A stretch of DNA of 64,000 bases from Escherichia coli (GTDB lineage Bacteria > Pseudomonadota > Gammaproteobacteria > Enterobacterales > Enterobacteriaceae): NCBI RefSeq assembly GCF_051903065.1, contig NZ_CP178438.1. The stretch is one strand, 5' to 3'. Numbering within the stretch: the stretch's first letter is position 1; every line of letters starts with the position of its first letter. The translations under genes and the position numbers were made by a program. Below the pieces are notes generated by a model. That model saw only the letters and a program-made list of their open reading frames with translations, did no database searches and had not been told where the DNA came from. Positions 12,903 through 53,306 of the stretch are shown piece by piece.

Positions 12903-12979
12903 GGCCGATATAGCTCAGTTGGTAGAGCAGCGCATTCGTAATGCGAAGGTCGTAGGTTCGACTCCTATTATCGGCACCA
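12903..12979 (+). tRNA. thrW: tRNA-Thr (CGU anticodon), prophage attachment site
   Basis: GCCGATATAGCTCAGTTGGTAGAGCAGCGCATTCGTAATGCGAAGG...TCGGCACCA cloverleaf ending in CCA, immediately followed by an integrase gene. Confidence 0.85.
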
Positions 12980-30017: not shown

Positions 30018-30521
30018 GTGCCGCATATGGCTGGAACGGCGGGGCGTTCCGGGCGTCGCCCCAAGCCAACGGCGCGCAAGGCGCTGGCCGGAAACCCCGG
30101 CAAGCGAGCCCTGAACAAAGATGAACCTGTTTTTACGCCCATCAAAGGTGTTGAGCCACCGGAGTGGTTCGCTGAAGAGGATCTCCCTCTCGCCACGATC
30201 ATGTGGCAACTGACAACCAAAGAACTCTGCGGTCAGGGCCTGCTGTGCGTGACTGACCTAGCGGTACTTGAGCGGTGGTGCGTGGCCTATGAGTTCTGGC
30301 GACGTGCCGTGAAAAATATTGCCAAACAGGGCAACACCATCACCGGTGCAATGGGCGGTATGGTCAAAAATCCGGAGCTGACCGCCAAAAAAGAACAGGA
30401 GTCCGAGATGAGCAGTACGGGGGCAATGCTCGGACTCGACCCCAGCAGCCGCCAGCGTCTGATTGGCCTGGCGGGGAAGAAGAAAGCCACTAACCCGTTT
30501 CTGAAAATCATCGAATCATGA
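30018..30521 (+). CDS. terminase small subunit (P27 family)
   Basis: 167 aa, basic N-terminus, position between HNH and the large terminase. Confidence 0.75.
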
Positions 30522-31225
30522 GCCGGAAATCTTACCCCAACGTAAATGCTGCCAATCAGTATGCCCGGGATGTCGTGCGCGGAAAGATTGTGGCCTGCCA
30601 GTTTGTGATTCAGGCCTGCCAGCGCCATCTTGATGACCTGATGGCGGAAAAAAGTAAGTCGTTTCGTTACCGCTTCGACAAGGACCTGGCTGAACGGGCC
30701 GCCAAATTTATTCAGCTGTTGCCGCACACCAAGGGTGAGTGGGCATTCAAGAGGATGCCCATCACGCTGGAGCCGTGGCAGCTCTTTGTGATCTGCTGCG
30801 CGTTTGGCTGGGTCAATAAAGGCTCCCGGCTGCGCCGCTTCCGTGAGGTGTATACCGAAATCCCCCGTAAGAACGGCAAATCGGCAATCTCTGCCGGTGT
30901 CGCCCTGTATTGTTTTGCCTGTGATAACGAGTTTGGCGCGGAAGTGTATTCCGGTGCCACGACAGAGAAACAGGCGTGGGAAGTCTTTCGCCCGGCGCGA
31001 CTGATGTGTAAACGCACACCCATGCTGACGGAAGCGTTCGGGATTGAGGTTAACGCCTCAAACATGAACCGTCCGGAGGATGGCGCGCGGTTTGAACCGC
31101 TGATCGGTAACCCCGGTGATGGATCATCACCCCACTGTGCGGTGGTGGATGAATATCACGAGCACGCCACCGATGCGCTTTACACCACGATGCTTACCGG
31201 GATGGGGCGCGACGTCAGCCACTGA
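30518..31225 (+). CDS. terminase large subunit, N-terminal fragment (ATPase), ends at a frameshift
   Basis: Walker B-like VVDEYHEH; reading frame terminates after ...[10 protein letters not shown]. Confidence 0.85.
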
Positions 31226-45484: not shown

Positions 45485-46529
45485 ATTTCAGCGTCCGACG
45501 CTGGCAGAAAATATCAGTATGCTCCGTAACGATTTATTCGCCAGGCTGGATGTCAGCGACACGCTCCGGCGCATGGATGAAGACGTGCGGGCAATGGTGT
45601 ATGCGGCGGCGCTGCATACGGTTTACGGGTACATCGATTATCTGGCAATGAACATGCTGCCTGACCTGTGCGATGAGTCCTGGCTGGCGCGACATGCTGC
45701 GATGAAACGGTGTCCGCGCAAGGGGGCCACGGCTGCCAGCGGGTATATGCGCTGGGAAGGTGTCAGCGATGGCCTGAAGGTGACCGCCGGGAGTGTTATT
45801 CAGCGCGATGACCTGGTGCAGTACACGGCAACTGCCGATGCAACCAGCTCCGGTGGTGTCCTGCGCGTGCCGATCGCCTGCTCAAGTGCAGGCGCGGTCG
45901 GTAACGCTGACGACGGTACGGCATTAATCCTGGTCACGCCGGTGAATGGTCTGCCGTCTTCCGGTGTGGCTGACACCCTGACAGGCGGATTTGATACTGA
46001 AGAGCTGGAAACGTGGCGCGCCCGCGTCATTGAGCGGTATTACTGGACGCCGCAGGGCGGGGCTGACGGGGACTATGTCGTCTGGGCTAAAGAAGTGCCC
46101 GGCATTACCCGCGCATGGACATACCGTCACTGGATGGGAACGGGGACTGTCGGTGTGATGATTGCCAGCAGCGACCTGATTAATCCCATTCCGGAAGAAT
46201 CAACGGAAACGGCGGCAAGACAACATATCGGGCCACTGGCTCCGGTGGCAGGCTCTGATTTGTATGTGTTCAGGCCGGTGGCACATACGGTGGATTTTCA
46301 TATCCGCGTTACGCCGGATACACCGGAAATACGAGCCGCCATCACCGCGGAGTTGCGTTCGTTCCTGTTGCGTGATGGTTATCCGCAGGGAGAACTGAAG
46401 GTATCGCGTATCAGTGAGGCGATTTCCGGTGCAAACGGGGAATACAGCCATCAGTTGCTTGCACCGGCGGACAATATCTCCATTGCAAAAAATGAACTGG
46501 CGGTTCTGGGGACGATTTCATGGACGTGA
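45471..46529 (+). CDS. baseplate J-like protein
   Basis: 352 aa. Confidence 0.7.
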
Positions 46530-47104
46530 CAAACGATGATTACATCCGTCTGTTGTCGGCACTGTTGCCCCCCGGTCCGGCGTGGTCAGCCAGCGATCCG
46601 GCGATTGCCGGTGCGGCACCTTCATTAACTCGTGCTCATCAGCGTGCGGATGCCCTGATGCGGGAGCTGGATCCGCGCACCACCACTGAACTGATAAACC
46701 GCTGGGAGCGTCTGTGCGGTCTGCCGGATGAATGTATTCCCGCAGGGACACAGACCCTTCGCCAGCGTCAGCAACGGCTGGATGCGAAGGTTAACCTGGC
46801 GGGCGGCATCAACGAGGATTTTTATCTTGCACAGCTTGCTGTCCTGGGCAGACCAGATGCCACCATCACGCGATACGACAAAAGCACGTTCACCTGCTCA
46901 TCGGCCTGTACTGACGCTGTGAACGCGCCTGAATGGCGGTATTACTGGCAGGTCAACATGCCAGCCGCCACCAACACCACCTGGATGACATGTGGCGATC
47001 CCTGTGATTCCGCACTGCGTATCTGGGGCGACACAGTTGTCGAATGTGTGCTTAACAAACTCTGCCCGTCGCATACCTACGTAATTTTTAAATATCCGGA
47101 GTAA
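46520..47104 (+). CDS. DUF2313 / YmfQ-like tail protein
   Basis: 194 aa, position before the tail fibre. Confidence 0.6.
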
Positions 47105-47107
47105 TCC

Positions 47108-47833
47108 ATGCATCGTATAGACACGAAAACCGCGCAGAAGGATAAGTTCGGCGCGGGTAAGAACGGTTTTACCCGTGGTAACCCCCAGACCGGCACGCCT
47201 GCCACCGATCTGGATGATGACTACTTTGACATGTTGCAGGAGGAGCTTTGCAGCGTTGTGGAGGCGTCCGGTGCCAGCCTGGAGAAGGGGCGGCACGACC
47301 AGCTACTTACCGCGCTTCGCGCGCTGCTGTTAAGCCGCAAGAATCCGTTTGGCGATATCAAATCGGATGGCACGGTGAAAACGGCTCTCGAAAACCTTGG
47401 TTTGGGGGAAGGCTCTGCGTTGCCCGTTGGTGTACCTGTTCCGTGGCCCTCAGCCACACCGCCAGCAGGGTGGCTGAAATGTAACGGCGCAGCATTTTCT
47501 TCTGAAATGTACCCCAATCTGGCAAAGGCTTATCCTACAAATAAATTACCGGATTTACGCGGTGAGTTTATTCGTGGCTGGGATGATGGGCGTGGAGTGG
47601 ATAGTGGGCGCGCGTTATTATCAACTCAAACAGATGAATTTAAATCACATAGTCATTATTTCGAAAGAACATGGGCACAAACTGGATTTGATACAACAGG
47701 TGGATATTATCTTTTAGCCGCTGATGTTTCTGGCTCAGTAAATCAACAGAGATCCGATAGCACTAACTCGGTGGGGGGGAGAGAATCTCGCCCTCGTAAT
47801 ATTGCATTTAACTATATTGTGAGAGCTGTGTAA
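47108..47833 (+). CDS. tail fibre protein (constant N-terminus plus invertible C-terminal part)
   Basis: 241 aa; inversion crossover site lies within the gene at ~47388-47412. Confidence 0.75.
47388..47412. repeat. inversion crossover site (gix/pix-like), left
   Basis: AAACCTTGGTTTGGG core, inverted relative to the site at 49295-49319. Confidence 0.65.
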
Positions 47834-48435
47834 TGGATAATGCTGTATTAAATAGCGAACATATTGCTACGAAGGCTGGAAATGTTACTGTTTATAACTT
47901 TGACGGTGAAACGCGAGAGTATATTTCCCCATCTATTGAATATATTGCCGTTGGTGTCGGTATTCCGGCATATTCATGTTTAGATGCTCCTGCCACACGT
48001 AAAGATGGTTATGCAATTTGCCGTTCTGCAGATTTTAACTCATGGGAATATGTGCCAGACCATCGCGGTGAAACGGTCTATAGCACTGAAACAGGAGAAT
48101 CAAAAGAAATCACAGCTCCGGGTGATTACCCTGAAAATACAACCACTATCTCCCCATTAACGCCATACGATAAATGGGATGGTGAGAAATGGGTGACCGA
48201 TACTGAAGCACAGCATAGCGCCGCAGTAGACGCGGCAGAAGCACAGCGCCAGTCACTGATTAATGCTGCAATGGCTTCCATTAGTCTGATTCAGCTGAAA
48301 TTACAGGCCGGACGGAAACTGACGCAGGCAGAAACAACCCGGCTTAACGCTGTGCTGGATTACATTGACGCGGTGATGGCAACAGATACCAGCACCGCGC
48401 CGAATGTCATCTGGCCTGAACTGCCGGAGGCGTAG
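47833..48435 (+). CDS. tail fibre assembly protein
   Basis: 200 aa, conserved C-terminus ...IDAVMATDTSTAPNVIWPELPEA. Confidence 0.8.
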   Translation: MDNAVLNSEHIATKAGNVTVYNFDGETREYISPSIEYIAVGVGIPAYSCLDAPATRKDGYAICRSADFNSWEYVPDHRGETVYSTETGESKEITAPGDYPENTTTISPLTPYDKWDGEKWVTDTEAQHSAAVDAAEAQRQSLINAAMASISLIQLKLQAGRKLTQAETTRLNAVLDYIDAVMATDTSTAPNVIWPELPEA

Positions 48436-48850
48436 GCCATTCAATATCTGGAGCACTGGAGGGATCAACCAGTTCCAGTGCGTCCAGATAATCCAGCCAT
48501 AAATTATATTGTTCCAGCTCGTCACCTTTCAGACGACCAATAGCAGCTTTGCCAGGCCACTGATGGGTATTGATGTAGGTATTGGCTTCTGAAACCAAAG
48601 ATATTTTTTTCATTTCAGCCGTCAATACCTCATCCTCTTTTGAAGGTGGTGGGGAATTAATCCATACTGGCCGTCCTGAACTGTCAGCGCCAATTTCTTT
48701 CCCTTCTGGATGCAGCCCAAGAAATTGCTCATATATTTCTCTGGTAATTTCAATAACATCATCAGGAAGCGTTCCCGCATCCTCATATTCTGGAAATAAT
48801 TCTTGCAGATAAAAACTTTTACTTCCGGGTGAAAAGAATACTGAGTTCAT
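48407..48850 (-). CDS. tail fibre assembly protein (alternative, inverted orientation)
   Basis: 147 aa with analogous C-terminus ...DPSSAPDIEWPTPP. Confidence 0.8.
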   Translation of the reverse strand: MNSVFFSPGSKSFYLQELFPEYEDAGTLPDDVIEITREIYEQFLGLHPEGKEIGADSSGRPVWINSPPPSKEDEVLTAEMKKISLVSEANTYINTHQWPGKAAIGRLKGDELEQYNLWLDYLDALELVDPSSAPDIEWPTPPAVQAR

Positions 48851-48852
48851 TC

Positions 48853-49347
48853 TTACCGTCCAATGATTAACGCTGATACGCTGGTATCTGAAGGAAAGGC
48901 TGCATTCAGTGGTTTGTCGACTTTGAACACAATCGTATTATTCCCCCTGACAGCGGCAAAAGAACAAGCCGCCGTCGCGTATGAACCTGTAATATTACTG
49001 GATACACCACCATAAGCTGTTGTTGATACCAGAGGGATAACGCCCAGCACCTTATTAGGAAATACAAAGGGCAATGTGGCTGTGGCAATATAAGACTTAT
49101 TAGAGCCTGTAATGGCATAAGCATTATCAGTCATTCCATTCATCGCCACTGGACCGCTTATACTTACAGTAACCATCTGAATGATTAGCCCGTCAGGTTG
49201 ACGAATCACAAAATTTCCATTGCCACCAGTAACCGTCCAGAAAGACATATCAGGGATTTGGTTTTCCCCGTTGCCCACATTCCGTTTTGCCGCTTCTCCC
49301 AAACCAACGTTTATGAAAATGCAGAAATAACGAGCAAATGGCATCAT
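48853..49347 (-). CDS. alternative tail fibre C-terminal segment (silent orientation)
   Basis: 164 aa Gly/Ser/Thr-rich fibre-tip-like ORF lacking its own N-terminal constant part. Confidence 0.6.
   Translation of the reverse strand: MMPFARYFCIFINVGLGEAAKRNVGNGENQIPDMSFWTVTGGNGNFVIRQPDGLIIQMVTVSISGPVAMNGMTDNAYAITGSNKSYIATATLPFVFPNKVLGVIPLVSTTAYGGVSSNITGSYATAACSFAAVRGNNTIVFKVDKPLNAAFPSDTSVSALIIGR
49295..49319. repeat. inversion crossover site (gix/pix-like), right
   Basis: CCCAAACCAACGTTT, reverse complement of the left-site core. Confidence 0.65.
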
Positions 49348-49373
49348 TCCTGCTTTTGTCAGGGAGATCTACC

Positions 49374-49928
49374 ATGCTTATTGGCTATGTACGTGTGTCA
49401 ACAAATGACCAGAACACAGATCTACAACGTAATGCGCTGAACTGTGCAGGATGCGAGCTGATTTTTGAAGACAAGATAAGCGGTACAAAGTCCGAAAGGC
49501 CGGGACTGAAAAAACTGCTCAGGACATTATCGGCAGGTGACACTCTGGTTGTCTGGAAGCTGGATCGGCTAGGGCGTAGTATGCGGCATCTGGTCATTCT
49601 GGTTGAGGAGTTGCGCGAACGTGGCGTTAATTTTCGCAGCCTGACGGATGCTATTGATACCAGCACACCGATGGGGCGTTTTTTCTTTCATGTGATGGGT
49701 GCCCTGGCTGAAATGGAACGAGAACTGATTGTTGAACGAACAAAAGCTGGACTGGAAGCTGCTCGCGCACAGGGACGAATTGGTGGACGTCGTCCCAAAC
49801 TTACACCAGAACAATGGGCGCAGGCCGGGCGATTAATTGCATCAGGCGTTCCTCGCCAGAAGGTGGCGATCATCTATGATGTTGGTATATCGACACTGTA
49901 TAAGAAGTTTCCGGTCGGAGATAAATGA
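49374..49928 (+). CDS. serine DNA invertase (Gin/Pin/Hin family)
   Basis: MLIGYVRVSTNDQNTDLQRNAL... with C-terminal HTH; adjacent to the invertible segment. Confidence 0.92.
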   Translation: MLIGYVRVSTNDQNTDLQRNALNCAGCELIFEDKISGTKSERPGLKKLLRTLSAGDTLVVWKLDRLGRSMRHLVILVEELRERGVNFRSLTDAIDTSTPMGRFFFHVMGALAEMERELIVERTKAGLEAARAQGRIGGRRPKLTPEQWAQAGRLIASGVPRQKVAIIYDVGISTLYKKFPVGDK

Positions 49929-49969
49929 AACCGTAGCACGTCGTATGCAAGATCGTGCTGCGGTTTATG
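49927..49969. repeat. hairpin-containing direct repeat, copy 1
   Basis: AAACCGTAGCACGTCGTATGCAAGATCGTGCTGCGG, imperfect copy of 50946-50987. Confidence 0.6.
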
Positions 49970-49985
49970 CTTATCACTTAAAGAC

Positions 49986-50855
<870 letters not shown>

Positions 50856-50945
50856 CTAATCCTTTGAATTTACATAGTAAAAAAGATACTTTTCCTCATA
50901 GTGTGAGCTAATTTTATGTTTCGTTTGATGATCGGACCGGTCTCA

Positions 50946-50987
50946 AAAACCGCAGGCACGTTGTATGCAAGAACGTGCTGTGGCTGG
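50946..50987. repeat. hairpin-containing direct repeat, copy 2
   Basis: AAACCGCAGGCACGTTGTATGCAAGAACGTGCTGTGG with 7-bp stem GCACGTT/AACGTGC. Confidence 0.6.
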
Positions 50988-51318
50988 CTGGTGAACTTCC
51001 AATAGTGCGAATATTGAATGATTTCTATCTGTTATAGATTTTACCGTATTTCGGCATGAATGAAACTGAATATCCTCCCACCGATTCTCCATGACTTTAC
51101 GCCACTGTCTCTAGGGCTGCTATGTGCCAGAGGCGGACGTTGTTAAAATAGAAAATATCCCAACCTTGTATGAGTCGTGCAATAATTTCGAACTTTATAC
51201 AAAGCTTTGGTTGTAAAGGTGTATAACCACAAGTGACATTAATCACATTTGTAAAGGCAAAATGCAACAAACTGAATTAGTTAATTGCGTAAATTTGAAG
51301 TTATGTTAAGGTGGTGAT

Positions 51319-51451
51319 GGTTTATGGGCAGATTTTGGGTCGCGTTTCGCGATCAGTGAAAAAAATGTCCGATAGGATTGCCTTTCAGGATCTCATGTTC
51401 CTCGCATTTCTTAAGGTTCTTGTCAAGTTTGCGTAAGAGTGCCCATAAACC
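51319..51451 (+). ncRNA. retron msr-msd non-coding RNA (a1/a2 bounded)
   Basis: 12-bp perfect inverted repeats GGTTTATGGGCA (51319-51330) and TGCCCATAAACC (51440-51451), the latter ~20 nt upstream of the RT start. Confidence 0.6.
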
Positions 51452-51470
51452 CTTTTAGAGGCGATCTAAA

Positions 51471-53306
51471 GTGAAACGACTACAATCATTAAAAGAAGCA
51501 AAAACAAAACCAGACTTGGCTAAGCTATTAGGAATCAAACCTTCAGCGTTAACATACTGCCTATATGTATTAAAACCTGAAAATCAATACACACAGTTTA
51601 AGATACCAAAAAAAAATGGCGGCGAACGGATAATAAGTGCACCTAACGGAATATTAAAGACGATACAGTCATCCTTATCAAGACTGCTTCTAGATTGCTT
51701 AGACGAAATAGTTTGCATTAAGTTTCCAGACTCAGAGTTAGCAAGGCAGAAAGCAAAAAACTCAAAAATATTAAAGTTAAAATGTTCCAACTCAGAAATC
51801 AAACAACCCTCACTGTCTCATGGATTTGAAAGAAAGCGTTCAATTATTACAAATGCAATGATGCACTTGGGGAAAAAATATGTTTTTAATATAGACTTGG
51901 ATAATTTTTTCGGCAGTTTTAACTTTGGTAGAGTCCGAGGTTTTTTCATAAAAAATAGAAACTTTGCACTCGATCCGGAAATCGCAACTGTAATTGCTAA
52001 AATTGCGTGCTACAACAATGAACTACCCCAAGGCAGCCCATGCTCCCCAGTAATCACTAATCTAATCACTCACTCGTTAGACATTAAACTGGCAGCGATT
52101 GCATCAAGAAACTCATCCACTTTTACAAGATATGCTGATGATATTACATTCTCTACGAGGAAGGGGGAGTTTCCTTCTGCTATAGCAAAAAATCAAAATG
52201 GTAAATATATCGTTAGTAAGAAAATTAGGGGCGAGATAACTCGCTCAGGTTTTATAATTAATGATGGGAAGACAAGAAATCAGTATAAAGACTCGAGGCA
52301 AGATGTAACAGGCTTAGTGGTTAATAAAAAGCCAAACACGAAAAAAGAATATTGGAGGCTTGTGCGTGCGCAATGTGACCATTTATTTAAACATGGTGAG
52401 TTCTTAGAGGTGATTGACGGCAAGGAAATAAAGGGGAATGTTAATAGCCTTGCAGGCAAACTTAACTTCATAGACCAAGTTGACCACTATAATAGATTGC
52501 GTCAAGGCGAAAAATTAAATCCAAAATATCACTTAAAAAAAGATGCCAATAAAAATGGCCATGCCAAAAAAAGGCGTTACTTACATAGTTCTAGAGAAAA
52601 AACGTTTAGTGAGTTTCTCTTCTATCGTTTATTTTATGGCAATGAATTACCAACAATTCTTACGGAAGGTAAAACTGACAATATTTATCTGAAGGCAGCA
52701 ATACATAAGTTAGCCTCATCATTCCCTAATTTGGCGGTCGCTGAAAGTCCAGGGCTCTCTTATAAGCCACGGACTAAATTTGTTAACTACAATGAGCGGA
52801 CAAAATATTTACTTGAACTTTATGGTGGTGCTGATTATTTAAAGGATTTTGTTATTCATTATAAACAACACTTTAATCGTTATAAGGCTCCCAAACCATC
52901 TAATCCAGTAATTATACTTGTTGATAATGATAGCGGACCAAAAGATCTGATTAATTACGTTAGTAAAGTTGATAATATTGGTATTTTCCCCACAGGTGTT
53001 CCAGATATCCGCGCCTCTGAGTTTGTACATATTTTTTGTAATCTTTATTTAGTGCTTACCCCTCAAGTTAAGGGATATACAGGAACTGATATAGAGCATT
53101 TTTTTAAAGATACAGATCGACTTAGACCACATAAAGGTAAGTTTTTCAATACAGTCTCTAAGCGTGATCATGATAATGATTTGAGCAAGGAATCTTTCGC
53201 AACTCATATTGTTCATGCCCACAAGCATGAAATTGATTTTAGTGGATTTACAAGCCTGTTAGAACGGTTAGTAAAAGTCATAAATCACTTTGACACTGTT
53301 AAGTAA
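51471..53306 (+). CDS. retron reverse transcriptase fused to a C-terminal Toprim domain
   Basis: RT motifs (NGGERIISAP, LPQGSPCSP, YADD in TRYADDITFS); C-terminal Toprim-like TEGKTD and VDNDSGP; 611 aa. Confidence 0.85.
   Translation: MKRLQSLKEAKTKPDLAKLLGIKPSALTYCLYVLKPENQYTQFKIPKKNGGERIISAPNGILKTIQSSLSRLLLDCLDEIVCIKFPDSELARQKAKNSKILKLKCSNSEIKQPSLSHGFERKRSIITNAMMHLGKKYVFNIDLDNFFGSFNFGRVRGFFIKNRNFALDPEIATVIAKIACYNNELPQGSPCSPVITNLITHSLDIKLAAIASRNSSTFTRYADDITFSTRKGEFPSAIAKNQNGKYIVSKKIRGEITRSGFIINDGKTRNQYKDSRQDVTGLVVNKKPNTKKEYWRLVRAQCDHLFKHGEFLEVIDGKEIKGNVNSLAGKLNFIDQVDHYNRLRQGEKLNPKYHLKKDANKNGHAKKRRYLHSSREKTFSEFLFYRLFYGNELPTILTEGKTDNIYLKAAIHKLASSFPNLAVAESPGLSYKPRTKFVNYNERTKYLLELYGGADYLKDFVIHYKQHFNRYKAPKPSNPVIILVDNDSGPKDLINYVSKVDNIGIFPTGVPDIRASEFVHIFCNLYLVLTPQVKGYTGTDIEHFFKDTDRLRPHKGKFFNTVSKRDHDNDLSKESFATHIVHAHKHEIDFSGFTSLLERLVKVINHFDTVK

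Follow-up and report, generated by a model that had tools for sequence, protein, structure and literature searches.

The invertible P segment of the Escherichia coli K-12 element e14 and its invertase PinE have been known since 1985, according to the reference to Plasterk and van de Putte given in PMC4272514, and inversion of this segment has been demonstrated by whole-genome sequencing, PCR and qPCR (PMC4272514; PMC12529663). In a 2025 paper, the e14 segment was proposed to act against phages, and the members of the Fis-dependent invertase family are reported to replace one another (PMC12529663). The G segment of phage Mu, Hin/H of Salmonella, Cin/C of P1 and Min of p15B are further systems for comparison, and the last three are likened here, by description, as members of the same Fis-dependent mechanism class. 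In this family, a crossover site is formed by two imperfect 12-bp half-sites flanking a 2-bp core which is identical in both sites. Recombination in vitro depends in this family on Fis, on negative supercoiling and on the topology of the inverted repeats. In the case of Hin, a promoter is inverted instead of a coding segment, and the hin gene sits inside its own segment.

In our study, the tail-fibre region of a prophage was analysed in the window, that is, the whole stretch of 64,000 nucleotides of E. coli DNA. With a probability of about 0.9, the region is considered to be a two-state switch in which Pin-catalysed site-specific DNA inversion acts on the tail-fibre operon of a prophage of the SfV/e14 type. 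The system is the known P segment switch of e14/SfV-type prophages, an ordinary one which has already been described. An invertible tail-fibre segment had been claimed for this region in the earlier note, and this reading was upheld by the in-frame fusion of the fibre in both states, the Gin/Pin-type sites and natural inversion at those sites.

Organization of the segment and its relatives

The invertible segment is 1909 bp long and contains two tip-plus-chaperone modules placed head to head (Table 1). The open reading frame list and the Pfam matches agreed with the gene content assigned before, i.e. a tip with its assembly gene on the plus strand and an alternative tip with its assembly gene on the minus strand. 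The fibre reading frame spans 47108-47833 at present, and residues 1-105 of its product are 97% identical to K-12 YcfK/StfP. Tip 1 is a phage tail-collar domain (Pfam PF07484 Collar, E 8e-15; PHROG 523, tail collar fibre) with 57% identity to the K-12 StfE tip, whereas tip 2 belongs to a different family. The TfaE-like and TfaP-like chaperones have 89.5% and 57% identity to K-12 TfaE and TfaP, respectively. On in-silico inversion, the 97-residue constant N-terminus was joined in frame to tip 2, giving a fibre of 247 aa in place of the 241-aa one, and in the PGAP annotation of the two isolates compared below, each form appears as a complete CDS. Thus, the locus has the composition of a tail-fibre cassette: the fibre is split into constant and variable parts, both fibres are intact and in frame, and each tip has its own Tfa gene.

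Table 1. Positions of the features of the invertible fibre cassette in the window.
Feature	Position	Strand	Remarks
Fibre constant N-terminal part	47108-47398	+	~97 codons; equivalent of the StfP/YcfK N-terminus; outside the segment
Left 26-bp crossover site (pix-like)	47385-47410		Within the fibre reading frame; encodes L-E-N-L-G-L-G-E
Variable tip 1	47399-47833	+	Currently joined to the constant part, giving the 241-aa fibre
Tip 1 assembly chaperone, TfaE-like	47833-48435	+	200 aa; Pfam PF02413 Caudo_TAP, E 2e-32
Tip 2 assembly chaperone, TfaP-like	48407-48850	-	147 aa; Pfam PF02413, E 6e-28; orientation currently silent
Variable tip 2	48853-49305	-	Currently silent; PHROG 12714; sub-threshold Pfam Gp53-like_C match
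Right 26-bp crossover site	49294-49319		TTCTCCCAAACC AA CGTTTATGAAAA; core AA at 49306-49307; 54 bp upstream of the invertase
Short leader, MMPFARYFCIFINV...	49306-49347	-	Encoded outside the segment (ORF list)
pin, small serine DNA invertase	49374-49928	+	184 aa; catalytic Ser9, C-terminal helix-turn-helix
Putative recombinational enhancer	49396-49458		5' end of pin; two Fis-consensus 15-mers, 49396-49410 and 49444-49458

The tip in the "off" position, whichever of the two it is, receives its own ATG from the leader, and the resulting predicted open reading frame lies at 48853-49347 on the minus strand. K-12 stfE has the same leader (MPFACYFFIFINVGLGE), and this leader-plus-tip type corresponds to StfE/StfE2 of PMC12529663.

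The locus is closest to e14 in its organization. The order is the same in both, namely ymfQ, the constant part of the fibre, a tip, a tfa gene, a reversed tfa gene, a reversed tip and pin, and both YmfQ and the constant part are 97% identical between the two. A defence gene also follows pin in both elements, being mcrA in K-12, whereas PD-T4-3 and a type I-C retron lie directly downstream of pin in the window. An Rfam search of the whole window returned tRNA only, and the retron RNA gave no match. The host elements are different, however: e14 is a 15-kb remnant at icd, whereas the window has a full-length SfV-like prophage of ~41 kb at tRNA-Thr/proA with complete head and tail genes. Further, the K-12 segment is ~1.8 kb long, its stfE is annotated as a pseudogene whereas the collar tip is intact here, tip 2 of the window is unrelated to the StfP tip, and the segment of the window is flipped in comparison to the MG1655 reference, the TfaE side being the expressed one. 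Comparison of the two elements shows K-12 e14 to be the remnant of a full-length SfV-like prophage type which still carries an intact switch. The prophage of the window carries homopolymer frameshifts. A G4/G5 homopolymer difference at 31203 divides its large terminase gene (terL), and therefore it is uncertain whether this copy can produce virions, unless the frameshift is a sequencing error.

The Mu G segment shares with the window the split of the fibre into constant and variable parts, the two tip-plus-chaperone modules, the invertase directly downstream and 26-bp inverted sites of the layout AAACC-NN-GGTTT; moreover, the Fis-consensus positions inside the invertase gene match, and both tails have Mu-type baseplate genes (gp44-48). 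On the other hand, the Mu segment is 3 kb in length with a constant part of 170 codons and long fibres (504 aa), its core dinucleotide is GA/TC in comparison to AA/TT, and its tips have no detectable similarity to those of the window. The phages SfV, SfI, SfII, SfIV and SKA5 have ~97% DNA identity to the window over the genes of the baseplate and the constant part of the fibre as far as position 47411, beyond which SfV, SfI, SfII and SfIV diverge. In SfV the complete left-site sequence is kept and is followed by a tip-2-like start. These five phages differ from the window by having neither invertase nor second tip nor right site; their fibre is fixed and is followed by gtr serotype-conversion genes.

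Crossover sites and inversion between isolates

Both cores given in the earlier note were found within its ranges, AAACCTTGGTTTGGG at 47392-47406 and CCCAAACCAACGTTT at 49298-49312. In a repeat search of 46000-51000, the top-ranked inverted repeat was one of 20 nt with 90% complementarity (arms at 47392-47411 and 49293-49312). When the 5-kb region was shuffled 40 times by dinucleotides, an 18/20 repeat was reached once, and therefore the repeat taken alone is weak evidence, marginally above chance. It is accepted as real because of its identity with the e14 sites, its conservation in relatives and the exact coincidence of the breakpoints in a sibling genome.

The left site, read as the reverse complement, is TTCCCCCAAACC AA GGTTTTCGAGAG, and its core TT is at 47397-47398. 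The two sites, of Gin/Pin architecture, are inverted relative to each other, have the central AA/TT dinucleotide in common and show the same AAACC-NN-GGTTT layout as Mu gix. In K-12 e14, the left site has the same base at 25 of 26 positions and the right site at all 26; four other E. coli relatives also have right sites that match at every position. Non-conservation in relatives had been named beforehand as an outcome that would count against the sites, and they proved to be kept in every one of the eight E. coli and phage relatives examined. In these relatives the outer half-sites are constant, and an SNP of the inner half (TTCC/TTCT) swaps sides with the orientation. A scan with the pattern AAACCNNGGTTT (up to 1 mismatch) gave 7 matches against 2.65 expected, and the fibre region holds only the two real sites. 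A multi-inversion system of the Min type, with six sites and many isomers by description in comparison to only two sites here, was rejected because a third site is absent.

The near-clonal sibling isolate 23CRST027 contains the exact predicted inverted product with 100% identity and coverage, annotated there as the 247-aa CDS. Its prophage is collinear on both flanks and otherwise has the same arrangement. The breakpoints fall in 47392-47411 and 49293-49312, within the 10-bp stretch TTGGTTTGGG that both sites share, and the orientation-linked SNP of the inner half-site swaps sides, so the segment is found to invert with its breakpoints at the sites. A second copy of the cassette, 95.5% identical, is present in a P2-like prophage of the same genome, and it is also flipped between the two isolates. 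In a census of complete E. coli genomes, the constant part was joined to tip 1 in 512 and to tip 2 in 39. Both orientations, which according to the earlier note may exist in the population, thus occur in nature, between two near-clonal isolates as well as across E. coli genomes. Phage vB_EcoM-689R6, whose invertase is 97% identical, was discarded as orientation evidence; its record is a partial genome that ends within the invertible region and is therefore uninformative on orientation.

The orientation differences may alternatively be ascribed to RecA-dependent homologous recombination at the inverted repeats, or to assembly artefacts. Inverted repeats are able to mediate homologous inversion, and from a mixed culture an assembler would choose one orientation arbitrarily. 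However, the sites have only 10 contiguous identical bases in common, far less than RecA would need for efficient recombination, the breakpoints lie exactly at the Gin/Pin-type core, and the second cassette underwent the same event; moreover, an assembler choosing among mixed reads would itself imply active inversion. Both explanations, which we consider extremely improbable, were rejected on the 10-bp identity, the core breakpoints and the second cassette.

It can also be speculated that the locus is a frozen relic, i.e. that Pin-like sites and gene persist in this genome while the segment no longer flips. SfV-type phages do keep the left-site sequence without an invertase, the prophage has its homopolymer frameshifts, and in the closest public genome, 23CRST031, a C-to-T change has produced R65W in Pin. 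In the window, however, Pin is intact with R65 and both sites are intact, and near-clonal isolates differ by exactly this inversion at two loci, so the inversion must be very recent in the lineage. Loss of switching is hence very unlikely.

The Pin invertase and the proposed mechanism

A Gin/Pin-type invertase had been claimed next to the right site, and the gene product is indeed a small serine invertase with Pfam matches to Resolvase (E 9e-52) and HTH_7 (E 5e-13). It aligns end to end with the Gin structures 3UJ3 and 4M6F (E 1e-93), carries Ser9 within YVRVSTNDQ and has 95% identity to K-12 PinE and 78% identity to Mu Gin (PHROG 125, DNA invertase). R7, R65 and R68 are present alongside the catalytic serine. 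An N-terminal catalytic domain with this serine, a C-terminal helix-turn-helix and a length inside the ~180-195 aa of the family are the features of a small serine invertase. The pin gene starts with the ATG at 49374 and not with the upstream ATG at 49338, which was rejected. The gene is already labelled pinE in RefSeq.

In Hin, the basic residues 47, 48 and 51 as well as Gln151, Arg154 and Leu155 are kept in invertases and not in resolvases, and these basic residues and the Q-x-x-R-L motif are reported to be specific to Fis-dependent invertases (PMC3798978). Residues described as contacting Fis in Hin, Gin and Cin are also found in the window Pin, as K46, K47 and R50 (GLKKLLR) and as Q-A-G-R-L, on an inferred numbering offset of 1 from Hin to Pin. 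A scan with the Fis consensus (KNNYRNNWNNYRNNM) located two 15-mers in the 5' part of pin, with centres 48 bp apart and 97 and 145 bp from the crossover core. A spacing of 48 bp between the Fis sites is the rule in this family. Matches at both of these positions were also obtained for Mu gin, K-12 pinE and the P2-like copy, and alignment showed the DNA of this region to be highly conserved. The predicted Fis sites are placed ~100 bp from the adjacent crossover site, which is the described spacing between enhancer and adjacent site (PMC3798978). The Fis consensus is degenerate, with ~7 matches per kb, and therefore the putative enhancer represents positional evidence, not proof. A promoter and terminator scan of 46900-51500 showed no excess over shuffles, and neither a pin promoter nor a promoter of the "off" reading frame was located.

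In the proposed mechanism, Pin dimers would occupy both sites, and the Pin-bound sites would synapse at the Fis-bound enhancer in the 5' end of pin. Pin would then cut at the central AA/TT dinucleotide through Ser9, and strand exchange by subunit rotation would flip the segment. The dependence on Fis and on the enhancer and the chemistry of cleavage are proposed after the Gin/Hin family. In the present orientation, the late operon would yield the 241-aa fibre with the collar domain and the TfaE-like chaperone; in the inverted one, it would yield the 247-aa fibre with the different tip and the TfaP-like chaperone. With two fibre states, the virions released from a population of lysogens would therefore be of two kinds, differing in receptor specificity. 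This host-range effect of the two tips is suggested by analogy with Mu and P1.

Possible host-side roles and significance

The switch may, instead of serving the phage, serve the host. In such a case, inversion would pick the tip that is joined to the external 17-residue leader (ORF 48853-49347, minus strand), and the free tip would mask outer-membrane receptors and keep other phages from adsorbing, which is what has been claimed for e14 StfE2 and phage T2. Inversion of the e14 P segment is reported to yield StfE2 and to block T2 adsorption (PMC12529663); the window has the same leader-plus-tip architecture, and PD-T4-3 and the retron adjoin pin. On the other hand, StfE2 is formed by the K-12 StfP tip, to which tip 2 of the window is not detectably similar, the ATGs of the leader have a badly spaced AGGA, and no minus-strand promoter is prominent. 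Moreover, the element is no cryptic remnant but a full-length prophage in which the head and tail genes are complete, and the published claim comes from a single K-12 study. A host-serving function is hence unlikely for this copy.

A broader possibility is that the cassette is a switch shared across prophages, SfV-like and P2-like, with an additional host-side role in which the "off" tip masks receptors. As nearly the same segment is present in two unrelated prophages and is flipped in both, one invertase may drive both loci in trans. We hold this combined reading to be rather improbable; if true, the pin-adjacent region with PD-T4-3 and the retron would be a phase-variable defence module.

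The phage fibre switch catalysed by Pin has little weight as a discovery, as both the P segment of e14 and its Pin were already known in 1985. The locus is nevertheless a real cause of assembly ambiguity and within-strain heterogeneity, and the pair of sibling isolates provides a clean natural case of two prophage fibre cassettes which are both flipped. The switch would also broaden the host range of the released virions, provided that the prophage can be induced.

Gene arrangement and crossover sites of the invertible segment

Feature calls from ORFs, Pfam and PHROGs have placed a fibre C-terminus with its assembly gene on the plus strand and an alternative tip with its assembly gene on the minus strand, as the earlier note had described. 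Exchange between the cores in silico gave an uninterrupted 247-aa fibre, in which the first 100 residues are unchanged and are followed by the alternative tip.

Features of the invertible segment and its surroundings
Feature	Coordinates	Strand	Domains, matches or sequence
Mu-type baseplate genes	upstream of fibre gene; Mu Gp48/YmfQ at 46520-47104	+	Baseplate_J, Mu Gp48/YmfQ
Fibre gene, 241 aa	47108-47833	+	tail-collar domain in C-terminal part
Left crossover site	47385-47410		reverse complement TTCCCCCAAACC-AA-GGTTTTCGAGAG; core TT at 47397-8
Caudo_TAP chaperone, 200 aa	47833-48435	+	
Caudo_TAP chaperone, 147 aa	48407-48850	-	
Tip ORF	48853-49347	-	
Right crossover site	49294-49319		TTCTCCCAAACC-AA-CGTTTATGAAAA; core AA at 49306-7
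Serine recombinase, 184 aa	49374-49928	+	Resolvase + HTH_7 domains
GIY-YIG protein	49986-50810	-	PADLOC PD-T4-3, E 3e-140
RT-Toprim type I-C retron, 'Ec67 family'	51319-53306	+	E 4e-222

Direct reading of 47200-50300 has recovered the crossover cores quoted earlier, AAACCTTGGTTTGGG at 47392-47406 and CCCAAACCAACGTTT at 49298-49312, and this pair was the top inverted repeat of 46000-51000 in the repeat search (20 nt, 90% complementary). Both 26-bp sites consist of two imperfect 12-bp half-sites flanking an identical central dinucleotide, with the AAACC-NN-GGTTT layout in common with the gix sites of Mu. The left site falls at fibre codon 97, and 54 bp separate the right site from the recombinase gene downstream of it. 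The repeat alone is marginally unusual, its 18/20 match being equalled in one of 40 dinucleotide shuffles, and a loose AAACCNNGGTTT search across the window returned 7 matches against 2.65 expected; the sites are taken as real because of the comparative evidence and not the repeat statistics. The right site is identical at 26/26 positions and the left at 25/26 to the sites of e14, the cryptic prophage of E. coli K-12 carrying the P segment and PinE. Moreover, the same sites are conserved in four further E. coli relatives, both orientations being represented; the outer half-sites are constant, the fibre side having GGTTTTCGAGAG (apart from a single substitution in strain H7) and the pin side CGTTTATGAAAA, with TTC(T/C)CCCAAACC as the inner half-site. 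The site-pattern search found only two sites in the window and hence a simple two-state switch is indicated.

Inversion between genomes

The isolate 23CRST031 (human faeces, Ecuador) is 99.98% identical to the window over 37 kb, with the segment in the same orientation. The predicted inversion product, built in silico and used as a search query, was found in 23CRST027, a near-clonal sibling from the same study, as one piece that covers all 3001 bases at 100% identity. Pairwise comparison of the two isolates showed the prophage and its flanks to be collinear except for the block 47392-49312, which aligned in reverse, and the base differences near the joints were only those expected from a swap of the inner half-sites. 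Since the differences are limited to this swap, the crossover is placed within TTGGTTTGGG, the 10 bp common to both sites, which fits exchange at the TT/AA core. In a census of 5,426 complete E. coli genomes, 36 have the full 3-kb region in the window orientation and 17 have it flipped, and the 401-bp left junction joins the constant part to tip 1 (the one now fused to it) in 512 and to tip 2 (the alternative tip) in 39. The expectation that both orientations exist has thus been confirmed across genomes. Inversion of the e14 P segment inside K-12 cultures has been detected by whole-genome sequencing and PCR (PMC4272514) and by qPCR (PMC12529663).

A second cassette copy, 95.5% identical to the window from 47386 to 49912, is present in the same genomes in a P2-like prophage unrelated to the SfV-like one, and is oppositely oriented in 23CRST027 and 23CRST031 (L003 5186-8583 and L004 5186-8584 of the respective P2-like prophages). 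The fibre constant part to which it is joined is of P2 type and far longer. By annotation this copy has a frameshifted invertase in 23CRST027 and an intact one in 23CRST031, as well as one frameshifted tfa in each isolate; the frameshifts together with the flip hint at trans-acting inversion or homopolymer sequencing errors.

The invertase and its putative Fis enhancer

The recombinase is 95% identical to K-12 PinE and 78% to Mu Gin, as anticipated for a Gin/Pin-type invertase, and its gene is annotated pinE by RefSeq in the nearest genome. It aligns end-to-end with the Mu Gin crystal structures 3UJ3 and 4M6F (E 1e-93), with the active-site serine in YVRVSTNDQ. Pin residue 65, the counterpart of catalytic Arg68 in gamma-delta resolvase, is Arg in the window and 23CRST027. 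In pinE of 23CRST031, the public genome nearest to the window (L001 22375-22929), a C-to-T change at the equivalent of window 49566 converts Arg65 to Trp. The window differs from both of these public genomes.

For Hin, Gin and Cin, the Fis consensus is KNNYRNNWNNYRNNM and two Fis sites follow a 48-bp spacing rule. Over the initial 260 bp of the invertase gene, one pair of matches to this consensus has centres exactly 48 bp apart (49403 and 49451); their distances from the crossover core are 97 and 145 bp. Mu gin, K-12 pinE and the second cassette copy, in the P2-like prophage, have matches at both positions as well, and the DNA here is strongly conserved in the alignment. These matches, supportive of a putative Fis enhancer at the 5' end of pin, are not conclusive because the consensus is degenerate (~7 matches per kb). 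About 100 bp separate the native Hin enhancer from hixL, and in Hin the basic residues of positions 47, 48 and 51 along with Gln151, Arg154 and Leu155 form a set specific to Fis-dependent invertases (PMC3798978); the window Pin has K46, K47, R50 and a Q-A-G-R-L motif.

Prophage context and probable function of the switch

The host element is a full-length prophage of ~41 kb beside a tRNA-Thr gene (12904-12976), next to proA and ending before betA. Its early genes are lambdoid, the head is of HK97 type and the contractile tail of Mu type. K-12 e14 has the same gene order, ymfQ-ycfK-tfaP-tfaE-stfE-pinE, with 97% identity for YmfQ, 97% for YcfK/StfP (fibre constant part) and 89.5% for TfaE (first chaperone), and appears to be a remnant of such a prophage. 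SfV, SfI, SfII, SfIV and SKA5 share ~97% DNA identity over the baseplate genes and fibre constant part, but the likeness ends at 47411, i.e. at the left site. SfV has the complete left-site sequence (L009 6385-6440 against window 47385-47411) followed by a tip-2-like start, whereas the invertase, right site and second tip are absent from the SfV-type phages; therefore the crossover site doubles as a mosaic boundary between phage genomes. A G4/G5 homopolymer difference at 31203 splits the large terminase gene of the window into 30518-31225 and 31225-32250 (235 and 341 aa), where 23CRST031 and 23CRST027 have a single intact 577-aa gene; either the sequence is in error here or the defect is real and would render this prophage copy non-productive.

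Two anti-phage defence systems lie directly downstream of pin. A perfect 12-bp inverted repeat preceding the retron (51319-51330/51440-51451) resembles the a1/a2 arms of the msr-msd RNA; no Rfam match was found for the retron RNA. The region appears to be a defence-cargo hotspot, as mcrA occupies the corresponding place in K-12 e14. The combination of pin, PD-T4-3 and this retron occurs in only 8 complete E. coli genomes. A 28-nt direct repeat (89% identical, with a GCACG...CGTGC hairpin-like form) flanks the PD-T4-3 module at 49936-49963 and 50956-50983. Similarity in other genomes stops at or near its copies (H147 ends at 50952; H148 covers 49928-50968), which suggests a cassette boundary.

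Every defining trait of the Gin/Hin/Cin/Pin family readable from sequence was found and, at this level, the system is an e14-type Pin/P-segment inversion switch of that family; the sites, invertase homology and 23CRST027 inversion product uphold the earlier note's call of a Gin/Pin-type invertible tail-fibre segment. In e14, inversion is reported to create StfE2, in which the 'off' tip (facing away from the constant part) is fused to a short leader whose coding sequence lies outside the segment, and to block T2 adsorption (PMC12529663). An ORF of the same leader-plus-tip form is present in the window (leader MMPFARYFCIFINVGLGE versus MPFACYFFIFINVGLGE in K-12), but the tip it contains has no detectable similarity to that of K-12 StfP and the promoter scan found no convincing expression signals for it, so that a comparable blocking of other phage, as a rival or additional role, is unlikely here. 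The classical phage fibre switch is the best-supported reading, and such a switch is already known and annotated as such. Transcription of the fibre operon from upstream would limit expression to the tip and chaperone facing the constant part, inversion would exchange the two tip-chaperone pairs, and the swapped tips may give virions of two receptor specificities, by analogy with Mu G(+)/G(-) and P1.
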